A DNA stretch of 63,327 nt, counting the filler, from Bigelowiella natans CCMP2755 (taxonomy: Eukaryota; Protista; Cercozoa): the NCBI GenBank assembly GCA_000320545.1. It is 5 parts of 5 records of this genome, joined end to end, with 100 filler letters (N's around TTAATTAATTAA, not from the genome) between each part and the next. Parts side by side here need not be neighbours in the genome. Positions count along the whole stretch, not along the records: positions 1 to 25,762 come from ADNK01002878.1; 4 more parts are not named here. One strand, 5' to 3'. The position numbers and the translations under genes were made by a program. This document shows, piece after piece, positions 4,994 to 40,006 of the stretch. The first letter of the stretch is position 1. Every line of letters begins with the position of its first letter. The notes under the pieces are model-generated. The model searched no databases. It was not told where the DNA came from and worked only from the letters and a program-made list of their open reading frames with translations.

Positions 4994-5337
4994 CCAGGCG
5001 TCCCTCTAACGAGCTGACGAGTAGAAAACTGGCAGAGCGCAACAAATTGCGAAACAGCAAATCAGAGCTTGTCGCAGCTTGAAATCCTCAGTCGTTTCCG
5101 TAGTTTCTCACTGATTTTGCAAATGTCGTGCAGTTCCTGGCAAGGTCGGTCAAGCGCCGAAAGCAGGGAAACGCGCGAAATTGCACTTGAAGTTGTGCTG
5201 CTGCTTTGATGGAGGCTTCAGGTTGTGTGCAAGAAGAAAGCCGCACAGGGCTTTTGGGCACCAACTGAACATGCACCTCGCACCGTGACCCATCTGACAT
5301 CTAGCCATGATCCCATGATCCTTTCAACCGCTTCCGT

Positions 5338-5663
5338 TGTTGCGCGTAAGGTGTTCACAGGCCGAGGCGCTACGTGCACAAGTAGGCAGGGGGGGGGAAA
5401 GGCACGTTTGCTTCCTTTTGAAGAGTTGTGTTTATTTTTATTAAAGATTATATTTTTATTAAATCGTGCACTGCGTAATCATTCGCGAAGCTTTCGCGAA
5501 TGCCGCCGCACGTGGGGCAGCACACTTCCGGTGTGCTGCCATGAGTCCCGCCGGAACCCACGTGCCTATGCTGTATTAATATCTACGTTATCTATATTCT
5601 ATATCCGCGACAACCCCTTTGTTGTCGCACGTGACTTGTGCCCGCGTAGTGGTACGCGCTACA
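5338..5663 (-). repeat. 3' LTR (326 bp)
   Basis: Appears identical by eye to 10999-11324. Termini TGTTGCGCG...CGCGCTACA form an imperfect terminal inverted repeat. Confidence 0.97.
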
Positions 5664-5671
5664 CCTCCCCC
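5664..5671 (-). other. Polypurine tract
   Basis: Minus strand GGGGGAGG directly abuts the 3' LTR. Confidence 0.8.
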
Positions 5672-5714
5672 AAGTCACGTTGCTCCTTCCTTCCTTCCTT
5701 ATTCCCTTAGACCT

Positions 5715-6310
5715 TCATCGCTTTCGGAACTTCACCAACCACCAGGTAATAGATTCCTCTCTAACCTTATCTCCTTTGTCGCTTACCCAGAACTCACCTT
5801 CGTCCTTAGGTTCGTGTCCATACCAGCCCTCTGCATCAAGGTCCCCCAGGACCTTATACCAGTGCTCAAAGGGTAAGTCGGGAACAGCTAGGTAGAGTAG
5901 CTGATATTTTCCGTCCTTTATTTTCATAGCTACCCTCTCCATATTTCGTAATCCAGGGTAGCCTAGATAGACAATCTTCATGCGCCAATCGTCGTTCACC
6001 CTGACCTTATTGTTTCCATATTCCACATCGAACTTAGGTCGGGGTCCTAAACAAGGCATTGCTCGCTCCCACACAGTAGGGTTTACTTTAACATCCTCTA
6101 GGAGCTTCTCACCGATATCATAATTCTTTAGGTGACTGATGTGGCGCAAGGTGACCCTGTTCCCATCATAGATGTAGTACTGCTTCCTCCCCTTCCTCTC
6201 GGTAACCTTTGCAACGCCACCCCAGAAGGGGTCTTGTTTATTTCTCGATCTCAGATTTACCTTGGCCCTAACATACTGTCCTTCCTTTAGAACTCGGCCA
6301 TCGTACGGGA
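5715..6310 (-). CDS. Orphaned C-terminal end of pol: duplicated integrase C-terminal segment plus degenerate N6-adenine MTase-like domain
   Basis: Open frame reading ...RHISHLKNYDIGEKLLEDVKVNPTVWERAMPCLGPRPKF (identical to the pol end) and continuing DVEYGNN..DDWRMKIVYLGYPGLRNMERVAMKIK..LLYLAVPDLPFEHWYKVLGDL..WWLVKFRKR*. It ends about 45 nt before the PPT. Confidence 0.8.
6030..6310. repeat. Inverted repeat arm A (281 bp)
   Basis: Reverse complement of 9243-9523; no mismatch seen on inspection. Confidence 0.95.
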
Positions 6311-6358
6311 GTATGCAACATTAATGACGAAGACGCTAACAGGACTATCAAAGTTGCT

Positions 6359-9300
6359 ATGACCAAGGTTAAAGTTAAAGACAGCTACGGAGACTACAAG
6401 AAACTACCTGCCCTTTGGGATAGTGGCAGCATGCCGAAGTCCTTCATAAGCCTAAGCACAGTAAGAAGGTTAGGACTATTGGATCAAGTGACTAAGAAAG
6501 AACGTAAATATGCTCAAGCAGACGGAAGCTCTTCCATGAAGACCGTCGGTGAGCTAATGCTAAAGCTACAGATACCTGGCAGCGACGCGGAGACCCAAAT
6601 CAAGACCCGAGTAGCCATGACTTTATCCATGGAACTACTCCTCGGACAGGATGCCCTAGAAAAATTAGGGGGGATCATATCATTCTACAATCACAAGATA
6701 TACTTTGCTAAGTTGCCAAAGAAGTCAGGCAGGACCATCAGCCAGAACATGATACGGCTTGACGAGTGGACCTCTGAGTCAAGCGTTAATGCGTTAGAGT
6801 TTATGGACCTAGCGGACAACAAGCTACCTACACCTACCGAGCTACGGAAGAAGAACCCCGGCAAGACCATCCGACAGATAACGGAGCTACTGGACAAGAC
6901 CCCCCCAGCTGATGATTGGGATATCGACAAAGGCAAAAAGTACATTAATAAAATATTAAACGAGAAGTACTCTGACATCACCAAGCCGACGACGAAGCCC
7001 TCCAGCAAGCTTACCCCAGTAAAGATCGAGCTAAAGAAGGGATACGAAGAGTGCATCATCAATGACCCAGAACATAGGCGACCGGAAGCGGACTGGGAAA
7101 AGATAGAGTGGCAGATCAATGAATGGGCAAAGGAAGGGAAGATAGAGCCAAGCAACTCACCATGGAACGTGAGACATGTGCTAGCTAAGAAACCTACTTA
7201 CCCTTTCTTCCGCCTGGCGCACAACTTCATCCGCCACAACCGAGTAATAAAGAGGATCCAGACACCTACACCAAGGATAGATGACGTTATTGAACACGTC
7301 ATAGGATACAAATACTACTCTTCCCTAGATAAAAATGAATCATACATGCAGACACCCATCCACAAAACCTCCCGCCCCATTACCGCGTTCTCCAGCAGGC
7401 ACAGGAAGTGGCACTTCGTCGTATTCCCTTACGGCCTAAGCATATCAGGGGATGCGTTCAGTAGTCAGAACTACAGGGCATACACACATGATGGGATGGC
7501 GTCTGTGTTGTGGGTGTTTGTGTTTGTGTATGTGGATGATGACATAATATGTACCAACACAGTCGTCGCTCAGATCTTCCTCCTGGAAAATATATTTATT
7601 AGGTTTGCACACTTCGGTTTTACTATTAGACTGCAGAAGTGTACATTCCTAGCTACAAGAATCAAGTGGTGTGGATATTACCTGGAGCAAGGCCGCATCA
7701 CCCCAAACCCCGAGAAAGTAGCAGCACTACAGCAAGCCCCTAAACCTAAGAATGCAAAGGAGTTAAAGTCATTCTTGCAGACTGCAGCTTGGATACTACG
7801 TAGGTTCTCCCCTACCTACGCTAGGACTGCAGCTGCTTTTACTACTGCTTACCGGAAGGAGAACTCTGTAGGCCTCAGCTTCGCTAAGGTGTGGGCCAAG
7901 GCTGGCCTTGATGCCCACTTCGATAACCTAATAAAGTTATGCAGCAACACCCTATTGAATGCTAAGCTAGACACTACTAGACCAGCTACCCTATGGACAG
8001 ACTGGTCTAAGCTAGGTATGGCTGCTGTACTTACCCAAGACCAGCAGATCATACGGGTGTGGGGCAGGGCCTGCACAGCAGCTGAGGCCAAGTACAGCCC
8101 TACAAAAGGAGAGTATAAAGCCATGACTGAGGCGCAGAGGAAACTAAGATACTACCTGCTGTCGGTGCCCAGCTTCACCTTAATGACTGACCACAAGCCC
8201 CTCCTAGGCATCGACCGCAAGCTCGAAGCGCCTAACGATGAGTATGCAGCTATGAGGGCGGACACGGAAGAGTTTAGGGACAAGAGGACAGTGGTCTACG
8301 CACCAGGAGACAAGCAGCTTGCTGACTATTTCAGCAGGCTGTTCGAAAAGAAAGTCCCTACCCAGGTCACCCCTATGGTTAACGCGATTACCTTCGAGGA
8401 CGGCGACTTCCTGCCTGAGCCAGAGGAGCTCCAGCACCTTCAAGAACACCTGGATAAATACAAACACAAGCATGAGGTACTTAGTGATAGGATATATGTA
8501 TACACTAATAATGTTAGGCGTACCTACGTGCCACGGCGGACCAGGGGAGCCCTTCTCTTTACCGCCCATGGACCTGCACACGTAGGAGAAAACCATATCA
8601 CTGCTCTACTCTACCATTACTACTGGCCCTACAAGCTAAAAGAGATAAGGACATACCTGCGTGGCTGCAGGTGCTCCAGCTTGAAGGCGGCAGGCGTCGC
8701 CACCAAGGAGTCCAGCAAGAGCCGTGCATCTAAGAAAATCAAAGCAAGGAACTTCTTAGATATCGTGCAAATTGATGTTTATAAGTACGATGGCTATCAC
8801 TACCTTACCTTCGTTGATGTGGCCACTGGAAAGTGCTGGGTTAAAAAGATTATCAAGGTCAACGTTGCTAAGAAGAACAAAGGCTTATATAAGCAGAGGC
8901 TTACTAACTGCTACCGTACCTGGGAGTCTGAGCTCCAGGCTATCCCTGATGAAGTTAGCATAAACAAGATACCAAAGAAGTTACATGTGGATAATGAGAC
9001 CTCTCTTCTACAGCTACCACACCCTAATATTGATGCCTCACCTGTATACTATGCCCAGTCCAACTCCAAGGTAGAGCGACTCCACCGCACCTTGGCCAAC
9101 CTAAGCAGGATAAATAGCACCACACCAGACAAGATACAAGGGTTAGTAAACGACACCTTCACGTCTGGGGGAGGTATCAAGGATAAGGAGAGGGAAGAAG
9201 GCGACGACAACGACGACGATACCGAGAGCGAAGACGAGAAGGTCCCGTACGATGGCCGAGTTCTAAAGGAAGGACAGTATGTTAGGGCCAAGGTAAATCT

Positions 9301-9604
9301 GAGATCGAGAAATAAACAAGACCCCTTCTGGGGTGGCGTTGCAAAGGTTACCGAGAGGAAGGGGAGGAAGCAGTACTACATCTATGATGGGAACAGGGTC
9401 ACCTTGCGCCACATCAGTCACCTAAAGAATTATGATATCGGTGAGAAGCTCCTAGAGGATGTTAAAGTAAACCCTACTGTGTGGGAGCGAGCAATGCCTT
9501 GTTTAGGACCCCGACCTAAGTTCTTTATGTCGTCTAGGGTCATGGGCTTGTCTTGGTCCTGCGTTGCTGGTACTGCTGTCTTCGTCGGCGCCTGCTTAAG
9601 GTGA
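6359..9604 (+). CDS. pol: Pol polyprotein (aspartic protease, reverse transcriptase, RNase H, integrase), inverted relative to the element
   Basis: Motifs ALWDSGS (PR), PYGL and YVDD (RT), LWTDWS..YSPTKGE..TDHKPL (RH), H-x3-H..CRC, IVQID, LHVDNE, KVERL (IN). The last 26 aa are read from antisense gag. Confidence 0.95.
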   Translation: MTKVKVKDSYGDYKKLPALWDSGSMPKSFISLSTVRRLGLLDQVTKKERKYAQADGSSSMKTVGELMLKLQIPGSDAETQIKTRVAMTLSMELLLGQDALEKLGGIISFYNHKIYFAKLPKKSGRTISQNMIRLDEWTSESSVNALEFMDLADNKLPTPTELRKKNPGKTIRQITELLDKTPPADDWDIDKGKKYINKILNEKYSDITKPTTKPSSKLTPVKIELKKGYEECIINDPEHRRPEADWEKIEWQINEWAKEGKIEPSNSPWNVRHVLAKKPTYPFFRLAHNFIRHNRVIKRIQTPTPRIDDVIEHVIGYKYYSSLDKNESYMQTPIHKTSRPITAFSSRHRKWHFVVFPYGLSISGDAFSSQNYRAYTHDGMASVLWVFVFVYVDDDIICTNTVVAQIFLLENIFIRFAHFGFTIRLQKCTFLATRIKWCGYYLEQGRITPNPEKVAALQQAPKPKNAKELKSFLQTAAWILRRFSPTYARTAAAFTTAYRKENSVGLSFAKVWAKAGLDAHFDNLIKLCSNTLLNAKLDTTRPATLWTDWSKLGMAAVLTQDQQIIRVWGRACTAAEAKYSPTKGEYKAMTEAQRKLRYYLLSVPSFTLMTDHKPLLGIDRKLEAPNDEYAAMRADTEEFRDKRTVVYAPGDKQLADYFSRLFEKKVPTQVTPMVNAITFEDGDFLPEPEELQHLQEHLDKYKHKHEVLSDRIYVYTNNVRRTYVPRRTRGALLFTAHGPAHVGENHITALLYHYYWPYKLKEIRTYLRGCRCSSLKAAGVATKESSKSRASKKIKARNFLDIVQIDVYKYDGYHYLTFVDVATGKCWVKKIIKVNVAKKNKGLYKQRLTNCYRTWESELQAIPDEVSINKIPKKLHVDNETSLLQLPHPNIDASPVYYAQSNSKVERLHRTLANLSRINSTTPDKIQGLVNDTFTSGGGIKDKEREEGDDNDDDTESEDEKVPYDGRVLKEGQYVRAKVNLRSRNKQDPFWGGVAKVTERKGRKQYYIYDGNRVTLRHISHLKNYDIGEKLLEDVKVNPTVWERAMPCLGPRPKFFMSSRVMGLSWSCVAGTAVFVGACLR
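9243..9523. repeat. Inverted repeat arm B (281 bp)
   Basis: Reverse complement of 6030-6310. Confidence 0.95.
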
Positions 9605-10959
9605 TCTAATATTCCGTTTATCTGCTGCTGTATAGCATTGATACTGTTCTGCTTTTTGTTCTTATATTTATTGTTCTTCCCGTTGTTGCTGCCTTGCCAT
9701 TTGCTGTTGTTATATCCTTGTCCTCTGCCTTTCTTTCTCTTTAACTTCTCGTAGTGTTCGTTGAGCTGCCTGATCGTCATCCTGGGTCGTCCTTCTTTCC
9801 TGTCTCTGCAGTCTTTAGCGGTGTGTTTCCCTTTACGTGAGCAGTATCCGCAACGTCGGTTACCTTCCCTGTCCTTGTACCAGTCTCGCTGCGGCTTAAT
9901 AGCGTTAATGTTTCCTATGCCAGGTACCTTAGGGCTGGTAAACTTGCGGTCCTGCTCCTGCTCGCGTAGGGATATAGCCTGCACTGCTGCCTCCATCGTG
10001 GTGTAGCCTTTCTCCGTAACGTAAGTGGATTCCTTTATCTTTAACTTGAACTCTTCAAACCTTGCCTGATCATCACCTGTGTTGTAATTAAAATCATGTA
10101 GTTCGTCGATCATATCCTGGAAGCGCGTGGCAAAGTCTCTAACAGGTTCTCTCTCATGCTGCATCATTGCTCTGTATTTTCTAATAGCCTGGGGTAGGGA
10201 GTTAGCATCCTGTTCATTTACAAAAGCCTTCATTATCGCCTCAACGTCTCGTAGCCCACTAACTGTAGTGTGTATTTTCTCTAGCTGCCTGATCCGGGTC
10301 CTGCCTGTCTCGTAAAGGTCCATGGCTTGCTTTATTATAGCTAGCCATTTGAGCTTGTCGTTTTCGGTGGGGTTAGGGGTAAAGTCGCAGAGTATACTCC
10401 TAGCGTTCTTCCACCACCTCCTTGCCTCACCTCTTTTCCCGTTGTATTTCGTTATCATAACCGGTGCTGTTTTAACAGACATGAACTGGGTGTTCCGCTG
10501 TACCGGCTGCTGCTGCTTGACGGTGCTCTGGGTCGTCCCCCGCGAGGCGCCCAGACCCCCGTCGTTCCTAAACAAAGCTGCCCACTCTGGAGGTAAGTCT
10601 GCTTCGTAATCCATGATGTCCTGCATGATAGCTGCCCAAACATCATGTGTCTGATACTTGTATTCTATCGATACTTTCAGTTTGGCGTAGTTGCTCGCCC
10701 TGGGTCGCAAGGCTCGTAATGCCATTACGACCTTCTTGCTTTCGGCGGCCACGTCCTCGTCGTCCGCCTCGTAGAAGTTCTCCAGTGCCTCTGCTGCTGC
10801 ATCTGCTTTCTTAATCCCGGGTGCTGGTCCCGGCGGTGCCTGTGGAGGTGTTCCTCCTCCTTCCTTAGCGTCCGTATCGCCCTTCCTTTCCTGTTTCTGC
10901 TCGTGCCCTTGCACGGCCTGCGAGCCAAAGTCCTGCTGTTCTTCTAGCTGCTGTGACAT
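9430..10959 (-). CDS. gag: Gag (capsid-like region plus Zn knuckle)
   Basis: 509-aa ORF starting just after the PBS. Retrotrans_gag-like segment MMQHEREPVRDFATRFQDM and knuckle CGYCSRKGKHTAKDC. The last 30 aa are read from antisense pol. Confidence 0.92.
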   Translation of the reverse strand: MSQQLEEQQDFGSQAVQGHEQKQERKGDTDAKEGGGTPPQAPPGPAPGIKKADAAAEALENFYEADDEDVAAESKKVVMALRALRPRASNYAKLKVSIEYKYQTHDVWAAIMQDIMDYEADLPPEWAALFRNDGGLGASRGTTQSTVKQQQPVQRNTQFMSVKTAPVMITKYNGKRGEARRWWKNARSILCDFTPNPTENDKLKWLAIIKQAMDLYETGRTRIRQLEKIHTTVSGLRDVEAIMKAFVNEQDANSLPQAIRKYRAMMQHEREPVRDFATRFQDMIDELHDFNYNTGDDQARFEEFKLKIKESTYVTEKGYTTMEAAVQAISLREQEQDRKFTSPKVPGIGNINAIKPQRDWYKDREGNRRCGYCSRKGKHTAKDCRDRKEGRPRMTIRQLNEHYEKLKRKKGRGQGYNNSKWQGSNNGKNNKYKNKKQNSINAIQQQINGILDHLKQAPTKTAVPATQDQDKPMTLDDIKNLGRGPKQGIARSHTVGFTLTSSRSFSPIS

Positions 10960-10970
10960 TGTTAGTCAAA

Positions 10971-10993
10971 TCGTTTCCCGTGTGTGGAAGCCA
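10971..10993 (-). other. Primer binding site (tRNA 3'-end complement, Glu/Asp-like)
   Basis: Minus strand TGGCTTCCACACACGGGAAACGA begins 5 nt inside the 5' LTR. The plus strand reads like a tRNA T-arm/acceptor end TCGTTTCCCGTGTGTGGAAG-CCA. The isoacceptor identity is inferred. Confidence 0.8.
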
Positions 10994-10998
10994 AAGGT

Positions 10999-11324
10999 TG
11001 TTGCGCGTAAGGTGTTCACAGGCCGAGGCGCTACGTGCACAAGTAGGCAGGGGGGGGGAAAGGCACGTTTGCTTCCTTTTGAAGAGTTGTGTTTATTTTT
11101 ATTAAAGATTATATTTTTATTAAATCGTGCACTGCGTAATCATTCGCGAAGCTTTCGCGAATGCCGCCGCACGTGGGGCAGCACACTTCCGGTGTGCTGC
11201 CATGAGTCCCGCCGGAACCCACGTGCCTATGCTGTATTAATATCTACGTTATCTATATTCTATATCCGCGACAACCCCTTTGTTGTCGCACGTGACTTGT
11301 GCCCGCGTAGTGGTACGCGCTACA
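10999..11324 (-). repeat. 5' LTR (326 bp)
   Basis: Direct repeat of 5338-5663, followed by TSD CCGT. Confidence 0.97.
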
Positions 11325-12870
11325 CCGTTGAACTGCTTCAATCGTGCACTCATTCGTTCACTTGACACCGGAATTGCAACGGAGCGTGAAGAGCGGAGAC
11401 AGCAATGATGCGCAGACACCTTCCACATGCACACAATGACTGCACAAAACGTGCAAGCGTCACGTTGCTGTCGAGCAAGTTGGATGCGTCTCAATGTCGT
11501 CGTTGTCAATGATCGATGTGATCCTTCGTGTCGTGGCGTCGTGGCGATGACCAAGCGCGGCCATTCATCAAGTGCAAAGCTCGATCACTGAGCAATGCAA
11601 TTGAGCAAGTTCGACGCACAGATCAGGTCGTTCGTTTGGCCTTGCTAGCTTGGCTAGTTGGCGTGCATGCATGATTCTGGAATCCCAGAACAATTGTGCG
11701 TTGCACGACCACATTTTGGCATTGGGCGACCCTTCTAGCTAGCCAATGTGGTCCAGCATTGATCAAATTCAAGCATGTTCATGACATCCGTCTCACGCTT
11801 GCTGATCGCGTGCTAGCGTGGGATCGCCGGGATGCGACATGACGTCATCATGGGCACGGTTCATGCTGTGCACATTGACACACATGCTGGCATGCCAGCT
11901 GCAGCCGCCAGCATGCTAGCATGGCACATGGATTTTGTCACTTTTATCACTTCATTGCATCCGTTTTGCATTGCCAGATTGGCGCAAATGCGCACCACCG
12001 TACATAGCGTGTGCTTGCATGCATGCATGCCAGCTAGCGTGCCAGGCGGACACAACTCCGAAAAACCTGCAACGAGTGGCATGACCTCTCAATTGAGAGC
12101 ATTTATTTTGCGTTTTTGTGCTGAAATTTTGCAAGCATGCAAAGCCAGTGTGTGTGTGCACGCCCTCATGAGCTTGCAAAACTTGTGGCACAGCAAGTCA
12201 CAGTGCAACTGCGCTAGCTATTTCAGAAGTGGCAAGCATTTTCCGCTGGCAGGCGTTGAAAAATGAGGTTCTGAAGCTGGCATTCGAAAAAAAATCAAAA
12301 TTGAACTTCAAACAGGCTCCAGTGTGGAGTGTGCTTCCAATGTCCAATTGCAACGATTGAGCGTGCCAGGCTGTGCGCGCAAAGCATGGTTTGTGCAAAA
12401 CCCAGTCGTCACAGGGGTTGATGGAGTTGTGGAACATCGGAAAGACAAAAGACACAGCGCTTTGGCTGCGAGCCGTCTGCGTGCATTCCACAGTCGCAAC
12501 TGCGTGGGCTGGCATCCTTCGATTCTGTGTTGCGCAGGAACCATTCTAGCATTGTCGGTGAGCTACAACATCACAAGGGGTAGAGACACGCACGTACTAT
12601 GTAGTGCAATGAATTAGCATGCTTTGTCTTTAGTTAGACACGTATGTACTTTGGTCGTCATATCTGTGCTTTGTCTCAAAGCGCGTGGAGCGCATGGGCA
12701 CTTGCTGCAGCATGCACACAGCAATATTTTTGTGACGCCCAGCCAGCTCTTGTGAGCACATGCAAGCACAGCAGCTTAGCGCTACGATTAGATAGTCGAC
12801 ATCAATGTTACGACTATATTTGAAACATTAAATATAATAATCATTAATTTGGCTTGGAAGTAACCTAGAA

Positions 12871-13461
12871 CTACCAGACCTCAGTCCCTGGTATAACAGC
12901 ATCAGTACACTTCTTTGGATATGATTTCCTCCAGAGCCCGATTACATGCTCCTTTTTGCAGTTGGGATTAGTGAGCTTCTCGTTGCCCTTACATTTGTCA
13001 AGAAGAGCCAACGTTTTCTGCGCGAGCTTAATATCCATTGTTTTCGCATCCTCGGGGTATAGAGCCATTAAGCATTGCTCAAACGAAAGCTGTAGTAATT
13101 AACAAGACCATCAGGTACGACGAAGCACATTTTAATTTTCTTCCAACGCGCGCGCCCACACACATACGCACACGGACACCCACACGCAGACATTAAAATA
13201 CATATTATATATGTATATTTACCGCACGGGTCGCACCGCTTAAATATGCATATATATATATATATATATATATATACAAAGTTAATTGTCTTCTGCGTAC
13301 CCCAGCGACATTGATTTGGCAGTTCCAGATGGCCCTTCCTTTGCAGATGCTCGTGCGCTTGACGACTTGCGGGAAATCATACTTAACGTACGCGTGTCCC
13401 GTGGTCATAGCCCCATCTTCCCATTCCATTTCCGGCACACTTCGTCCTGAAAACGATATAT

Positions 13462-33745: not shown

Positions 33746-35925
33746 TTATTCATTAATTCTATAGGATGAGCCCCAACTCTTGAATTTATCTTGCTCTGCT
33801 GTCATAGACTGAAACAGCTCTGCTTCCGACAGCCCCTGATTTTGCATCGACGTGCCTTGCCGATCCAACGAAATGCTGCCTGGAGAACGACTAGTACGGT
33901 TGCCGATTTTCAACTCCCCGCTTCTTGTATTTGTCCCAATTCCAGGATTATAAGTCGAGAATGTTTGGAATGCAGAAAGAGAAGATACTCCCTTTTGGGG
34001 TAATTCGTTTCCCATTTGTCGTCGCCCATCCGTGTTAGGGTGGCTTTGACTGAAGGTTTGTATTGGTTCCATATGCAAGTGATGGTGTGAATCTTGCCCG
34101 GTATTGTTATGGTGTGCCGAACGATACTGCAGATGTCGAAGCTGTCCTTGTCCGACTTTAAATGCTGACATGATAGCATAATTTTTTCCTGAAGGCAGAA
34201 GTGCTGCATACGGATTTTGCCTTGATAGAGGCTCTGGTCGATGATATTGTGGTTCCTATTTTAGGCACATTAGTAATGTCAAGAATGTTTTCAGATTGAA
34301 GACCACCTGTGGAATCGAGGATCTGAGGTAGTCATAGGTTGATTTAATTTCCTGAAGATTTGGTCGTTGGTTCCCAAGCTGTGAGTATTCGAAGGTTGAT
34401 TGAGCGAGGTTCGTTTCTGCCATTTTATTAAGAGCTTCATTTTGTTTATAATGGGCTTTAAGATGTACCTATGCATGTTTTAGTGTCAAGATAAAATAGA
34501 TTACATTACATTAGTAAAAAACTTCACTTTCAAATGGGACTTTTGCTTGAACTTTGCTGAACAAATTCCGCACAGAAATGGACGTTCCCTGAGAGAACAT
34601 CATTGACATAATGAAACCCATTTTACAGGGGGAAAATCTGAACATAATTGGAAATGATATGATACCCTGTGTGGACACGAACATGTCGTTGATATCTGAA
34701 AATAAGACTAATGCTCAGAATTGAACGTAAGACGTCAGTGTGATGTGTACTGTACTCGCTTCTACTTCGGAACATCTTGTTACATTGCGTGCAGCTCCAG
34801 CTGTAAATAAAACATGTGTTTAGCCTCGCACTAAAGAAGGATATGAGAAAGTCGACCTTTTTAATGTCATTGGTAAAGTAAATTGATTTGATGAGCTAGA
34901 TATTGAAGACCCAATTTGACTATCTTCTCCATCCATATTTATCTTAACATCTGATAAAACACTTTTTTGCGCTATAGCCATTGTTCTGGCTCCGACAATG
35001 TATCCTAATACTGGAAGCTTCTGACGATTGATTATCTCCATCATTCTATCGTCGGTGACCACGAAACTGAATGAAGAGGATAATTACAGGATTACAGGTA
35101 CATCTATCAATGAAACTATTTACTAATCAAGTTTTTTTGGAACTTATTCAGCTCTACCTTTCCTGCCCTTTTTGAGAAGCATGTGGTTTAATACTTGTTT
35201 GATATTCGGAGATCGGTATCGCATTGATTGGAATGGGCGTTTTTCTTGAAAGTGGACTTTTCTTCAATCCTGCTATTGAATGCCAATGACAACATTAATT
35301 GTAATTCAATGAATAATACATGACAGGACCTTGAGCTTTTGAATTCCAAGATTTGGTTGTTGCTGGTCTAGGTTTCTTTTTTGGAGGTTTTGTTGATGTT
35401 TCCAACCCAGGTACATGTGGTCTAACTTTCTTCTTCGGAGATCTAGTTGCTGATTCCAATCCAGTTGTATCATCCGGCGGCTTGGACGACATAATTTGTT
35501 CTTCTGTCAATTTTCCACGATGAAGCGGCGGAAGCAGCGCGGAAGAGTTGACGTTTTGCCAAGGGGGAGACGTTCCAGGCGCTGTGTGTGCGCGCAAGGA
35601 TGCCACTCCGCCTTTTGACCGTGTACGTGCAACAGATCGGATGATGGGCTAAATCTCAACGATACAAGCTTCATCCCGCGCAGCTGCTGCCTCTTAAGAA
35701 CTTAGGAGTACCGCGCTACCACAAGCCTCGTTATTTTTAGACCTCTGGTGTTGCTTTGCGATTATAGCTTGGAATCTCACGACCTTTTTCATGTGCGACA
35801 TCGCTTTGCTCACGTCGTCAGGGGCGGGTTTTCCATCGTTGGAGCTGTTCTGAAGCTGTTCGCTTTCGCATTCGAAGGAGAAATCAGATGCACTCTCGAC
35901 ATTGAAGCCCCTGGTCAACCCTCTA
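33746..35925 (-). CDS. C2H2 zinc-finger transcription factor (two fingers), multi-exon; start unresolved
   Basis: Four small exons at about 34800-34450 splice to WSCTQCNKMFRSRSE|YQRHVRVHTG|ERPFLCGICSAKFKQKSHLK|VHLKAH, with the canonical TGERP linker. NLS-like PKKKVR and PKKKPR lie upstream. Confidence 0.88.
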
Positions 35926-36696
35926 AAGATTATAATTGCAGCATTTCGTGTGATGTTTCGGTGAAATGGATGGTATTATGAAGATGTAGTGACGACTCAT
36001 TTACTTTTTCTGTGATCAAGTTCGCAACCGAGTGTGTCAAATTTCTCTGTTTGTTGTAATGTTTGTAGTGTTCCGCGGCACAATCCAACATGAACAAACG
36101 TTAGTTGTTTGAACGCGACAACTGTCAAGCAGAACAAATTTAGCTTCAACATCGCTCAATGCCAGCCGCAAAGTTAAACTTTGACAGGACATGCTCTATT
36201 TTCCTTCTGCGACACTTCTAGTTTCATGTCGCAAGAAATGTCTCAAAGGCCCAAGCAGCGTACTCGAATCAAGCATCGAACAATGCGATTCATGCGAGCA
36301 CCCGCTCTGATTTCGACAGGAATTTGCCCGTGTAACATCCAACCAAATCTCCAATTGTCTTCCCGACCACCACCGTTCAATCAGTCTAATTGCAAGCTTT
36401 GCTCAATTTTGGTGTGAATAAAGTCTCGATCAGTAGCGTGCGCGTTGTCGTCGTGCAGCCTGCTGAAGAAATTTTCACTGTTGTCAGAAGCACACACGAC
36501 GACGACACAACAGGCTGCAAATTTTACTCTTTCGATCAGAAGTTATGAGGTGTAATTGGGATGAATATGACTGCCAGATGTGGGCAAAAATGTAGCTTCG
36601 CACCCATTTATAATTGAAAGAGTTAAAACAAAACAAAATATATACCAAATACTTCTGAAATATATTGTCTAGGAAAAAAGTTGTGGACACGACCCC

Positions 36697-38992: not shown

Positions 38993-40006
38993 CAGCCACT
39001 TGCGAGTAGTGCGGAGTAGACCGAAGACCATATATATTCAAAGAAATCGTTTACTGCGAGCACAGCGCACATAGCTAGATGGGAATAGCTCTAGCACTAG
39101 CAATGTAGCAATCATGATGAGTGCCATGAGAATCGCGGGTGCAGCAGATTCCTATAGTCCTTGTGGAGAGACATGTGTGCAATACAAGCGATGCATGGCG
39201 AGAGTGAGCAAGATGTACAACACAATAACGCATGCCAATCCCATATGTTCATTCATTTGTACGTGAGCCTTTCTAGCTTTGCTCTCTTGGCCTTGCCTGT
39301 GCAAAGCGTTGCGAAGTCAAGCAAGCTCTGTCTTCGACATCACATTCCCATGCATTTCATGTCATTGCTGCATATGTGCTGCGATGTGCAAATGATTGTG
39401 CATGCGAAAAAGAGTGTGTGCCAGGCTAGCAAGTGCATTGCTTGCTAGCTTGTGTTTGTGTATCGCGAGCCTTACGTGCATGATCTTGATTGAAACAACT
39501 CGCACTATCTAGCTATCCATGTTTGACAACCAACAGCAAACATCTGCGCCTTCCGTTGCAACTCTTTATTTGCATTTTGGAAGTCCAAAATCCGATTGCT
39601 GATCACCATCAAGTTGCGTACAAGTGTTCGATCATGTCACAGTGGACACAGCGCTCATCTAGCTACATTGAGGCGCTTCGATTTGGCCAGGCCATGTATG
39701 TGTGCACAAACGTCAGCAACACATGCGATGATGCTGTTTTTGCACTCACGATCGGAGATAAAAGATGCACAGGTGACGATTGCTAATTGTAACTATTTTT
39801 CAGGTTATTATTCGACACCAATCAGGAAATATTGTGGCGCTATTTACTTTCGTTGCTGAGCAAGCTGACACGACTAGAAACTTACTCTTAGGATATGTTA
39901 CAGTGACAACCAGGCTACTCTTCCTTCTCCTACCAGGAAGTAGGGGAGGGCAGGAGAAGATCGGATAGACCTTCATTGCATCAGAGGCAATGACAGGATA
40001 TAAGCA

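Follow-up and report, generated by a model that had tools for sequence, protein, structure and literature searches.

The window analysed here is a stretch of 63,327 nt, filler included, joined from parts of five records of the Bigelowiella natans CCMP2755 genome, in which a young Ty3/gypsy-type LTR retrotransposon interrupts an intergenic tract nearly devoid of TA dinucleotides outside the palindrome CTAG (Table 1). The two LTRs of the element (5338-5663 and 10999-11324) are 326 bp each and identical, its target-site duplication is CCGT, and its TA content is that expected from base composition (observed/expected ratio, o/e, 1.06). The element is therefore not eroded although it is flanked on both sides by the TA desert, in agreement with the original prediction that a TA-rich element had inserted into sequence already eroded: the erosion is older than the LTR insertion, and the desert was one tract of ~1.45 kb before the element landed.

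Table 1 The interrupted TA desert, the inserted element and adjoining sequence
Feature	Position	Strand	Description
Left desert part, before LTR insertion	5103-5337		1 TA, in CTAG; left CCGT target-site copy 5334-5337 at its end
Young Ty3/gypsy-type LTR retrotransposon	5338-11324	-	RVT_1 and RT_RNaseH domains; gag on - strand
Single-copy desert part	11329-12049		10 TA in 721 bp, 7 in CTAG; CG o/e 0.98; hardly any RNA reads
~40-bp dispersed motif	11757-11796	+	Also at 21590-21628 (+) and 58070-58112 (-)
Copy of a dispersed, multi-copy, non-coding repeat	12050-12435		3 TA in 386 bp; CG o/e 0.60
Single-copy right desert end	12436-12550		1 TA, in CTAG
Uneroded flank, TG/CA-rich and CC-poor like the desert	12551-12787		TA o/e 0.89; reaches poly(A) site of - strand gene

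Thirteen Bigna1 models match the element at 91-100%, and a cupin ORF in the window shares 98% identity over 100% of the query with EP00466_Bigelowiella_natans / Bigna1 136262; both results identify the window as nuclear DNA of B. natans. Polarising substitutions through the 13 models of the LTR family yielded only three usable amino-acid differences, all of them transversions, and showed no erosion. The family looks active, as judged from abundant RNA, identical LTRs and 99-100% identical protein copies; RNA depth in run X21 was ~7300 at the LTR end (11280-11326) vs 41-68 for the adjacent gene. The pol segment of the element is inverted, with pol on the + strand and gag and the integrase tail on the - strand (6030-6310 / 6308-9523 / 9243-9523), and is accompanied by a perfect 281-bp inverted duplication. 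Other copies appear collinear, as gag leads directly into the pol start at 6308 in 9 of the 13 Bigna1 models, and the inversion in the window may be a true rearrangement or an assembly error. Contigs from runs X1, X6 and X7 join an LTR end either to 11907-11910 or to sequence resembling the beginning of the repeat at 12050 (11321-11331, 11907-12052), a weak hint, from contig sides of only 21-28 letters, that other LTR copies may lie beside other copies of this repeat and that insertion could be preferential.

Between 11329 and 12550 there are 14 TA dinucleotides vs 72.7 expected from base content (o/e 0.19), nine of which lie in CTAG, two in TTAT and one each in GTAC, ATAG and CTAT, and the stretches 11329-11645 and 12221-12546 contain no TA. 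On the other side of the element, at 5103-5337, the single TA, located in CTAG, compares with 13.3 expected. The hand count that drew attention to the locus (about 14 TA and nine CTAG where some 70 TA were expected in ~1220 bp, none at 11329-11644 or 12221-12545, and a continuation at 5103-5337 with a lone TA in CTAG) was thus reproduced, the TA-free stretches each being one nucleotide longer. The desert has its edges at 5102 and 12564, TA being normal again from 12564 onward. With both halves pooled and microsatellites masked (1445 bp), five non-CTAG TA were counted vs 73.2 expected from the remaining window (Poisson p = 3e-25), and CTAG accounts for 10 of the 15 TA vs a background share of 3.3% (p = 3e-12). 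The single-copy parts carry three non-CTAG TA in 836 bp to the right of the element and none in 233 bp to its left. Other dinucleotide o/e values at 11329-12550 are 1.67 for TG, 1.82 for CA, 0.89 for CG, 0.56 for CC and 0.60 for GG. The retention of CpG that had been proposed for the whole tract applies to its single-copy parts, where CG o/e is 0.98-1.01, and fails in 12050-12435, where it is 0.60. Repeat-induced point mutation (RIP) of fungi converts CpA to TpA, scars repeats and may reach flanking DNA. The tract shares with RIP its localised, dinucleotide-specific transitions, with the direction reversed as predicted: TpA is lost (0.19), CA is raised (1.82) and GC is up, whereas RIP makes TpA from CpA.

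The tract is non-coding. None of 16 tract frames reached the curated cut-off in a Pfam search (best E 0.0047), none of 10 frames had a PHROG match better than E 0.01, and Rfam gave no matches anywhere in the window; the same Pfam and PHROG results, which decayed homology could escape, leave a viral (NCLDV or virophage) origin of the tract unsupported. Raw RNA reads of run X21, with depths taken from 6 in 100 of its reads, covered 11346-12731 at a depth of 0-2.6 vs 41-68 at 12798-13061, which belongs to the adjacent - strand gene; a poly-T loose end at 12788 places the poly(A) site of this gene at ~12788. As two runs presumed to be RNA carry exact tract contigs (X17, 11732-11961; X19, 11340-11477), the silence of the tract is not absolute.

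Eight of 24 public runs were compared with the tract; X20 and X22-X24 were left out, and X18 and X19 are represented by a small share and by short pieces only. Positions 11329-12049 were covered by one 796-nt contig without differences in 4 of 4 DNA runs, and more broadly 11297/11340-12092 and the sequence from 12387 onward were recovered as single contigs with no differences in 4 of 4 DNA runs, a comparison of low power in which the right side of X6 is in two pieces. Between them, run X2 placed 131 contigs on the repeat, 105 of which were <99% alike, and their summed depth reached up to 32,053 vs 141-159 in the flanks, a depth not to be read as a copy number. Of the 1222 bp at 11329-12550, 386 bp are thus a copy of a dispersed repeat and the remainder is single-copy, so that the tract is a member of one repeat family in this part alone. 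No loci were found when metagenome contigs were scanned for exact repeat patterns, and within the window a degenerate repeat pattern matched no copy other than that of the tract. Many dispersed, non-coding copies are a MITE-like trait of 12050-12435; in the window copy no matching right end or target-site duplication was found, and the ~40-bp motif stands forward at 11757. This motif is also found, reversed, beside another repeat copy in run X17, and its similarity between sites gave a best score of 61, reached by none of 60 shuffles. Given its recurrence at 21590, at 58070 and beside a repeat copy, the single-copy part probably represents older debris of repeats. The motif copy at 58070 has four TA where the tract has CA, CA, GA and CG and the 21590 copy has CA four times, an unpolarised difference. 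A degenerate candidate inverted repeat at 11598-12095 (nhmmer E 2.8e-7) was rejected, as its arms are 54% identical with a folding z of -1.94, and an equally high score was obtained once in 1200 block shuffles and for 2 of 184 control pairs.

Differences between repeat copies were taken from the union of 48 distinct listed copy rows, based on contigs, which omit rare variants. At least 33 transitions were seen among them, at least 25 at YR dinucleotides, which make up 53% of positions (p = 0.006). The listed rows vary at 18 YR sites, of which 14 include CG, two include TA and two are TG/CA only; three of the CG-type sites fall in a (TG)n run, whose alignment is uncertain. A simple decay of CpG would be the simplest reading of these differences and likely acts inside the 386-bp repeat. 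The scarcity of pure TG/CA swaps suggests that the TA poverty of the repeat family preceded the divergence of its copies. The window reads CCAG at 12145-12148, where other copies carry CTAG or CTGG, and CTAG at 12214-12217, where loose ends of other copies show CCAG or CTGG; CCGG is not among the listed states at either site. Among these differences, the one non-CTAG TA site, 12219, is TA in the window and TG in 10 of 10 covering X2 contigs, and this TA could be newly arisen.

Several intergenic tracts of the window combine a high content of TGCA, CATG and CTAG with little CC/GG and near-normal TA (1600-2760, 20640-22060, 32640-33450, 39020-39760, 52900-53560 and 57960-58560). Within 20640-22060 alone there are 24 CTAG, and most of these tracts seem, by eye, to start right after a gene stop codon. 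The abundance of TGCA, CATG and GCATGC noted originally is present in the tract, yet is largely a pre-existing trait of this intergenic class, in which TA is normal. Simulated TA erosion of six other intergenic tracts gave GC 0.50-0.51, CC 0.53-0.58, GpC 1.50-1.55, TGC 2.8-2.9 and 23-24 TGCA/kb, compared with 0.51, 0.62, 1.59, 2.74 and 20.8/kb in the desert, and slightly over-predicted TG (1.86-1.92 vs 1.69) and CATG (18-19 vs 16 per kb). Erosion simulated on ordinary background did not yield the GpC of 1.6 or the 21 TGCA/kb. No correlation between non-CTAG TA and TG+CA was seen in 104 tiles elsewhere in the window (rho -0.07). A second TA desert lies at 32866-33400, shortly after an ORF that ends at 32635, with five TA in 535 bp (o/e 0.14), TG 1.56, CA 2.19 and no CTAG; it includes a TA-free run of 357 bp, longer than any other in the window. 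Mild TA poverty at 49050-50000 (o/e 0.44) and 35800-36560 (0.38), without a strong TG/CA rise or CTAG, probably has a different cause.

A process with this specificity has been measured in B. natans. According to the main text of a 2026 preprint, of the 302 de novo mutations found across 15 mutation-accumulation lines, 231 lay in two integrated viral regions, and 230 of these 231 were A>G/T>C, all on TpA (10.64898/2026.01.13.699255). The same text describes TpA-poor, CpA/TpG-rich windows, with 1-kb cut-offs of 0.43 for Rho_TA and 1.52 for Rho_CA+TG, defines a hypermutation cluster as at least three consecutive 1-kb windows, gives viral inserts of 25-186 kb as the proven targets, notes the signature also in transposon-like and unannotated sequence, states transcriptional silence for the NCLDV region, names RIP as an analogy and puts forward, as a hypothesis, adenine deamination by an ADAT2-like deaminase (10.64898/2026.01.13.699255). 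In a scan of the whole 63,327-nt stretch (1-kb windows, 100-bp steps), both cut-offs (TA <=0.43, CA+TG >=1.52) were passed by seven sliding windows only, all of them on the desert; the best had TA 0.21 and CA+TG 1.80, and the tract as a whole has a Rho_TA of 0.19 and a Rho_CA+TG of ~1.75. Like the viral targets as presented by Mettrop et al. (10.64898/2026.01.13.699255), the tract combines TpA loss with CpA+TpG gain, passes the cut-offs and, in the X21 reads, seems near-silent; unlike them, it is 1.45 kb long, intergenic and non-viral, and at 1222 + 235 bp it falls below the cluster size of three consecutive windows. The context-specific TA to TG/CA transitions of the original prediction therefore correspond to a measured process, although the substitutions of the tract itself are unpolarised and repeat copies differ mostly at CG sites (14 of 18). 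Nothing in the analysis pointed to a modified T, to 5hmU or to base J, and the preprint favours deamination of A. In amphioxus, ADAT2/3, of the enzyme class proposed for B. natans, performs natural A-to-I DNA editing as a tRNA deaminase, and the GAA and hairpin-loop context reported for it (PMC10354150) explains neither the TpA nor the CTAG rule. Transposons and repressed genes of B. natans carry an H3K9me3/H3K27me3 state (10.1101/2025.03.17.643675), a candidate targeting cue for the mutator.

Loss of TpA by this hypermutation, sparing mainly CTAG, is in our view the probable origin of the desert. Several observations run contrary to it: variable YR sites among the listed repeat copies are mostly of the CG type, with TA in two only and unpolarised; the TA at 12219 could be new; the DNA runs show no differences in the single-copy part, at low power; the proven targets are viral inserts of 25-186 kb; TA and TG+CA are uncorrelated across tiles; ordinary background does not reproduce the composition when eroded; TG and CATG are slightly over-predicted; exact tract contigs occur in two presumed RNA runs; and the young, TA-rich LTR family is without erosion. 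Coding sequence with TA-avoiding codon use, for which several stop-free tract frames of 50-149 aa could be cited, has a negligible chance of being the answer, since losing TAA and TAG opens frames by itself and neither the protein-family searches nor an RNA depth near zero point to exons with biased codons. CpG decay, the deamination of 5-methylcytosine, raises TG and CA and cannot remove TpA. That the TA deficit is an arithmetic by-product of CpG decay in formerly GC-rich sequence, in which T, A, TG and CA would increase and TA would not, would fit the raised TG and CA, the dominance of CG/TG/CA states in copy differences and the low CG of the repeat, but the ancestor would have to be 70-75% GC, a value far from the maximum of 57% reached by any of 501 other 1-kb windows, the single-copy parts retain their CpG, and simulated CpG decay left 45-65 other TA/kb vs 3.5 observed, with 0 of 120 simulations reaching five or fewer. 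It is extremely improbable, and the original exclusion of CpG decay stands for the desert as a whole; CpG decay remains a contributor inside the repeat. It is also improbable, though less so, that the whole tract is what remains of one or several old repeats, their source sequence having been poor in TA for reasons of its own, with no erosion at the locus. Nearly a third of 11329-12550 is dispersed repeat, the ~40-bp motif is common to two other intergenic tracts, and the rarity of pure TG/CA swaps (2 of 18 listed sites, at low depth) places the TA poverty of the repeat before the divergence of its copies. Against this, the single-copy parts are equally TA-poor, the desert edges at 5102 and 12564 differ from the repeat edges, a sister copy of the motif retains four TA, and the B. 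natans TpA mutator would itself account for a TA-poor source copy.

The persistence of CTAG was assessed against 20 matched tiles, the top 20 of 174 outside the tract by TGCA+CATG, picked blind to TA and CTAG. These contain 6.7 CTAG and 47.5 other TA per kb; in the tract, CTAG stands at 6.9 per kb and other TA at 3.5 (Fisher p = 3.5e-6), and the comparison is conservative because three of the tiles overlap the second, small desert. CTAG density in the remaining tiles is 1.8/kb, and the CTAG richness of the tract partly reflects its substrate. TA occupies 10 of 28 C..G frames in the tract vs 47 of 67 in the flanks, a survival of 0.51, compared with 0.096 in frames with one fitting flank and 0.075 in the remaining frames; the six flank tracts of this test were chosen by eye, partly on CTAG. 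As half-matching frames survive no better, resistance seems to require the whole CTAG. In simulations (120 size-matched runs per model), 10 or more CTAG were reached in 0 of 120 runs with no sparing, 2.5% with fourfold slower loss, 19% with tenfold slower loss and 42% with full sparing, and in 2.5-19% under a model of CCAG-specific re-creation. Full sparing never combined at least 10 CTAG with 16 CCAG/CTGG, and no single model matched 10 CTAG together with 16 CCAG/CTGG well, so that the simulations bracket the CTAG loss rate and fit slower loss and re-creation alike. Since CTAG, CCAG and CTGG states all occur among repeat copies at both sites, CTAG is resistant rather than immune, and the claim that the desert spares CTAG is accurate for its density and too strong as an absolute.

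We lean towards a mutator that strikes CTAG more slowly. It is possible, although less likely, that the mutator is indifferent to CTAG and that a second C-to-T process, for example at a methylated inner C, remakes CTAG from CCAG/CTGG in a closed cycle; this judgement concerns the CTAG sub-question only and is compatible with TpA hypermutation as the source of the desert. TGCA/CATG-rich tiles of normal TA hold 39 CTAG, 20 CCAG/CTGG and 4 CCGG, the poorest tiles 60, 181 and 51, as if CCGG and CCAG/CTGG drained into CTAG; all three of CTAG, CCAG and CTGG are present among repeat copies; and the fit of CCAG-specific regeneration equals that of tenfold slower loss (P(CTAG >=10) 0.19 each). A general decay of CAG/CTG, as from CWG methylation, was rejected by simulation, as it would strip CTG, predicting a CTG o/e of 0.04-0.41 and <1.4 CTAG/kb vs 1.19 and 6.9 observed. 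The CCAG-specific form alone survives, and no report of such methylation was found for B. natans. Maintenance of CTAG or GCTAGC by selection, or their shielding through protein binding or base modification, is very unlikely. Each of the 10 surviving CTAG is preceded by G or followed by C, vs 26 of 39 in the matched tiles, and six of the 10 are GCTAGC vs 8 of 39, but the CCAG/CTGG of the tract are biased likewise (13 of 17; seven GCCAGC/GCTGGC), which indicates that the flank bias follows local GpC richness, and the repeat copies differ from one another at both of the CTAG-type sites. A literature search, by abstracts and listings, returned no relevant account of a CTAG exception, one on the repeats of B. 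natans gave nothing of use, and no B. natans methylome was found, the passage located mentioning DNMT6 only and PMC12344493 containing no mention of the species.

Under TpA hypermutation, the substrate would have been TGCA/CATG/CTAG-rich, CC/GG-poor intergenic DNA like that in other parts of the window, probably the debris of old repeats, in which each TpA could be destroyed from either strand to give TG or CA. Ordinary TpA would have been reduced by about 92-93% and CTAG by about half or less, with CTAG either struck several-fold more slowly or partly re-created. The mutator, for which the ADAT2-like adenine deaminase proposed in the preprint is the candidate enzyme, would have been at work earlier than both the divergence of the repeat copies and the LTR insertion. 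The source copy of the 386-bp repeat was likely eroded already and passed this state on, and later divergence among the copies would have been mainly by CpG decay.

The core process is already known from the 2026 preprint, and the tract is best read as a further, non-viral instance of it. In the main text of 10.64898/2026.01.13.699255 no CTAG exception, TGCA/CTAG-rich substrate or LTR element was found, and the CTAG exception is an addition beyond that text. A wider, doubtful picture would be of the TpA mutator as a reverse-RIP genome defence that marks small non-autonomous repeats and spreads ~1 kb into single-copy flanks, with a four-base code that protects the palindrome CTAG through enzyme context or symmetric modification; together with CCAG/CTGG-to-CTAG flux, repeated rounds would build a TGCA/CATG/GCTAGC-rich compartment, the favoured landing site of a young LTR family. 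The B. natans TpA mutator runs counter to the near-universal GC-to-AT bias of mutation, and the tract suggests that it has also acted on short, non-viral intergenic and repeat DNA besides large viral inserts. If CTAG is under-represented among de novo TpA mutations, this would constrain the recognition site of the enzyme or indicate a protective mark; if it is not, a second, CCAG-specific C-to-T process would be indicated.
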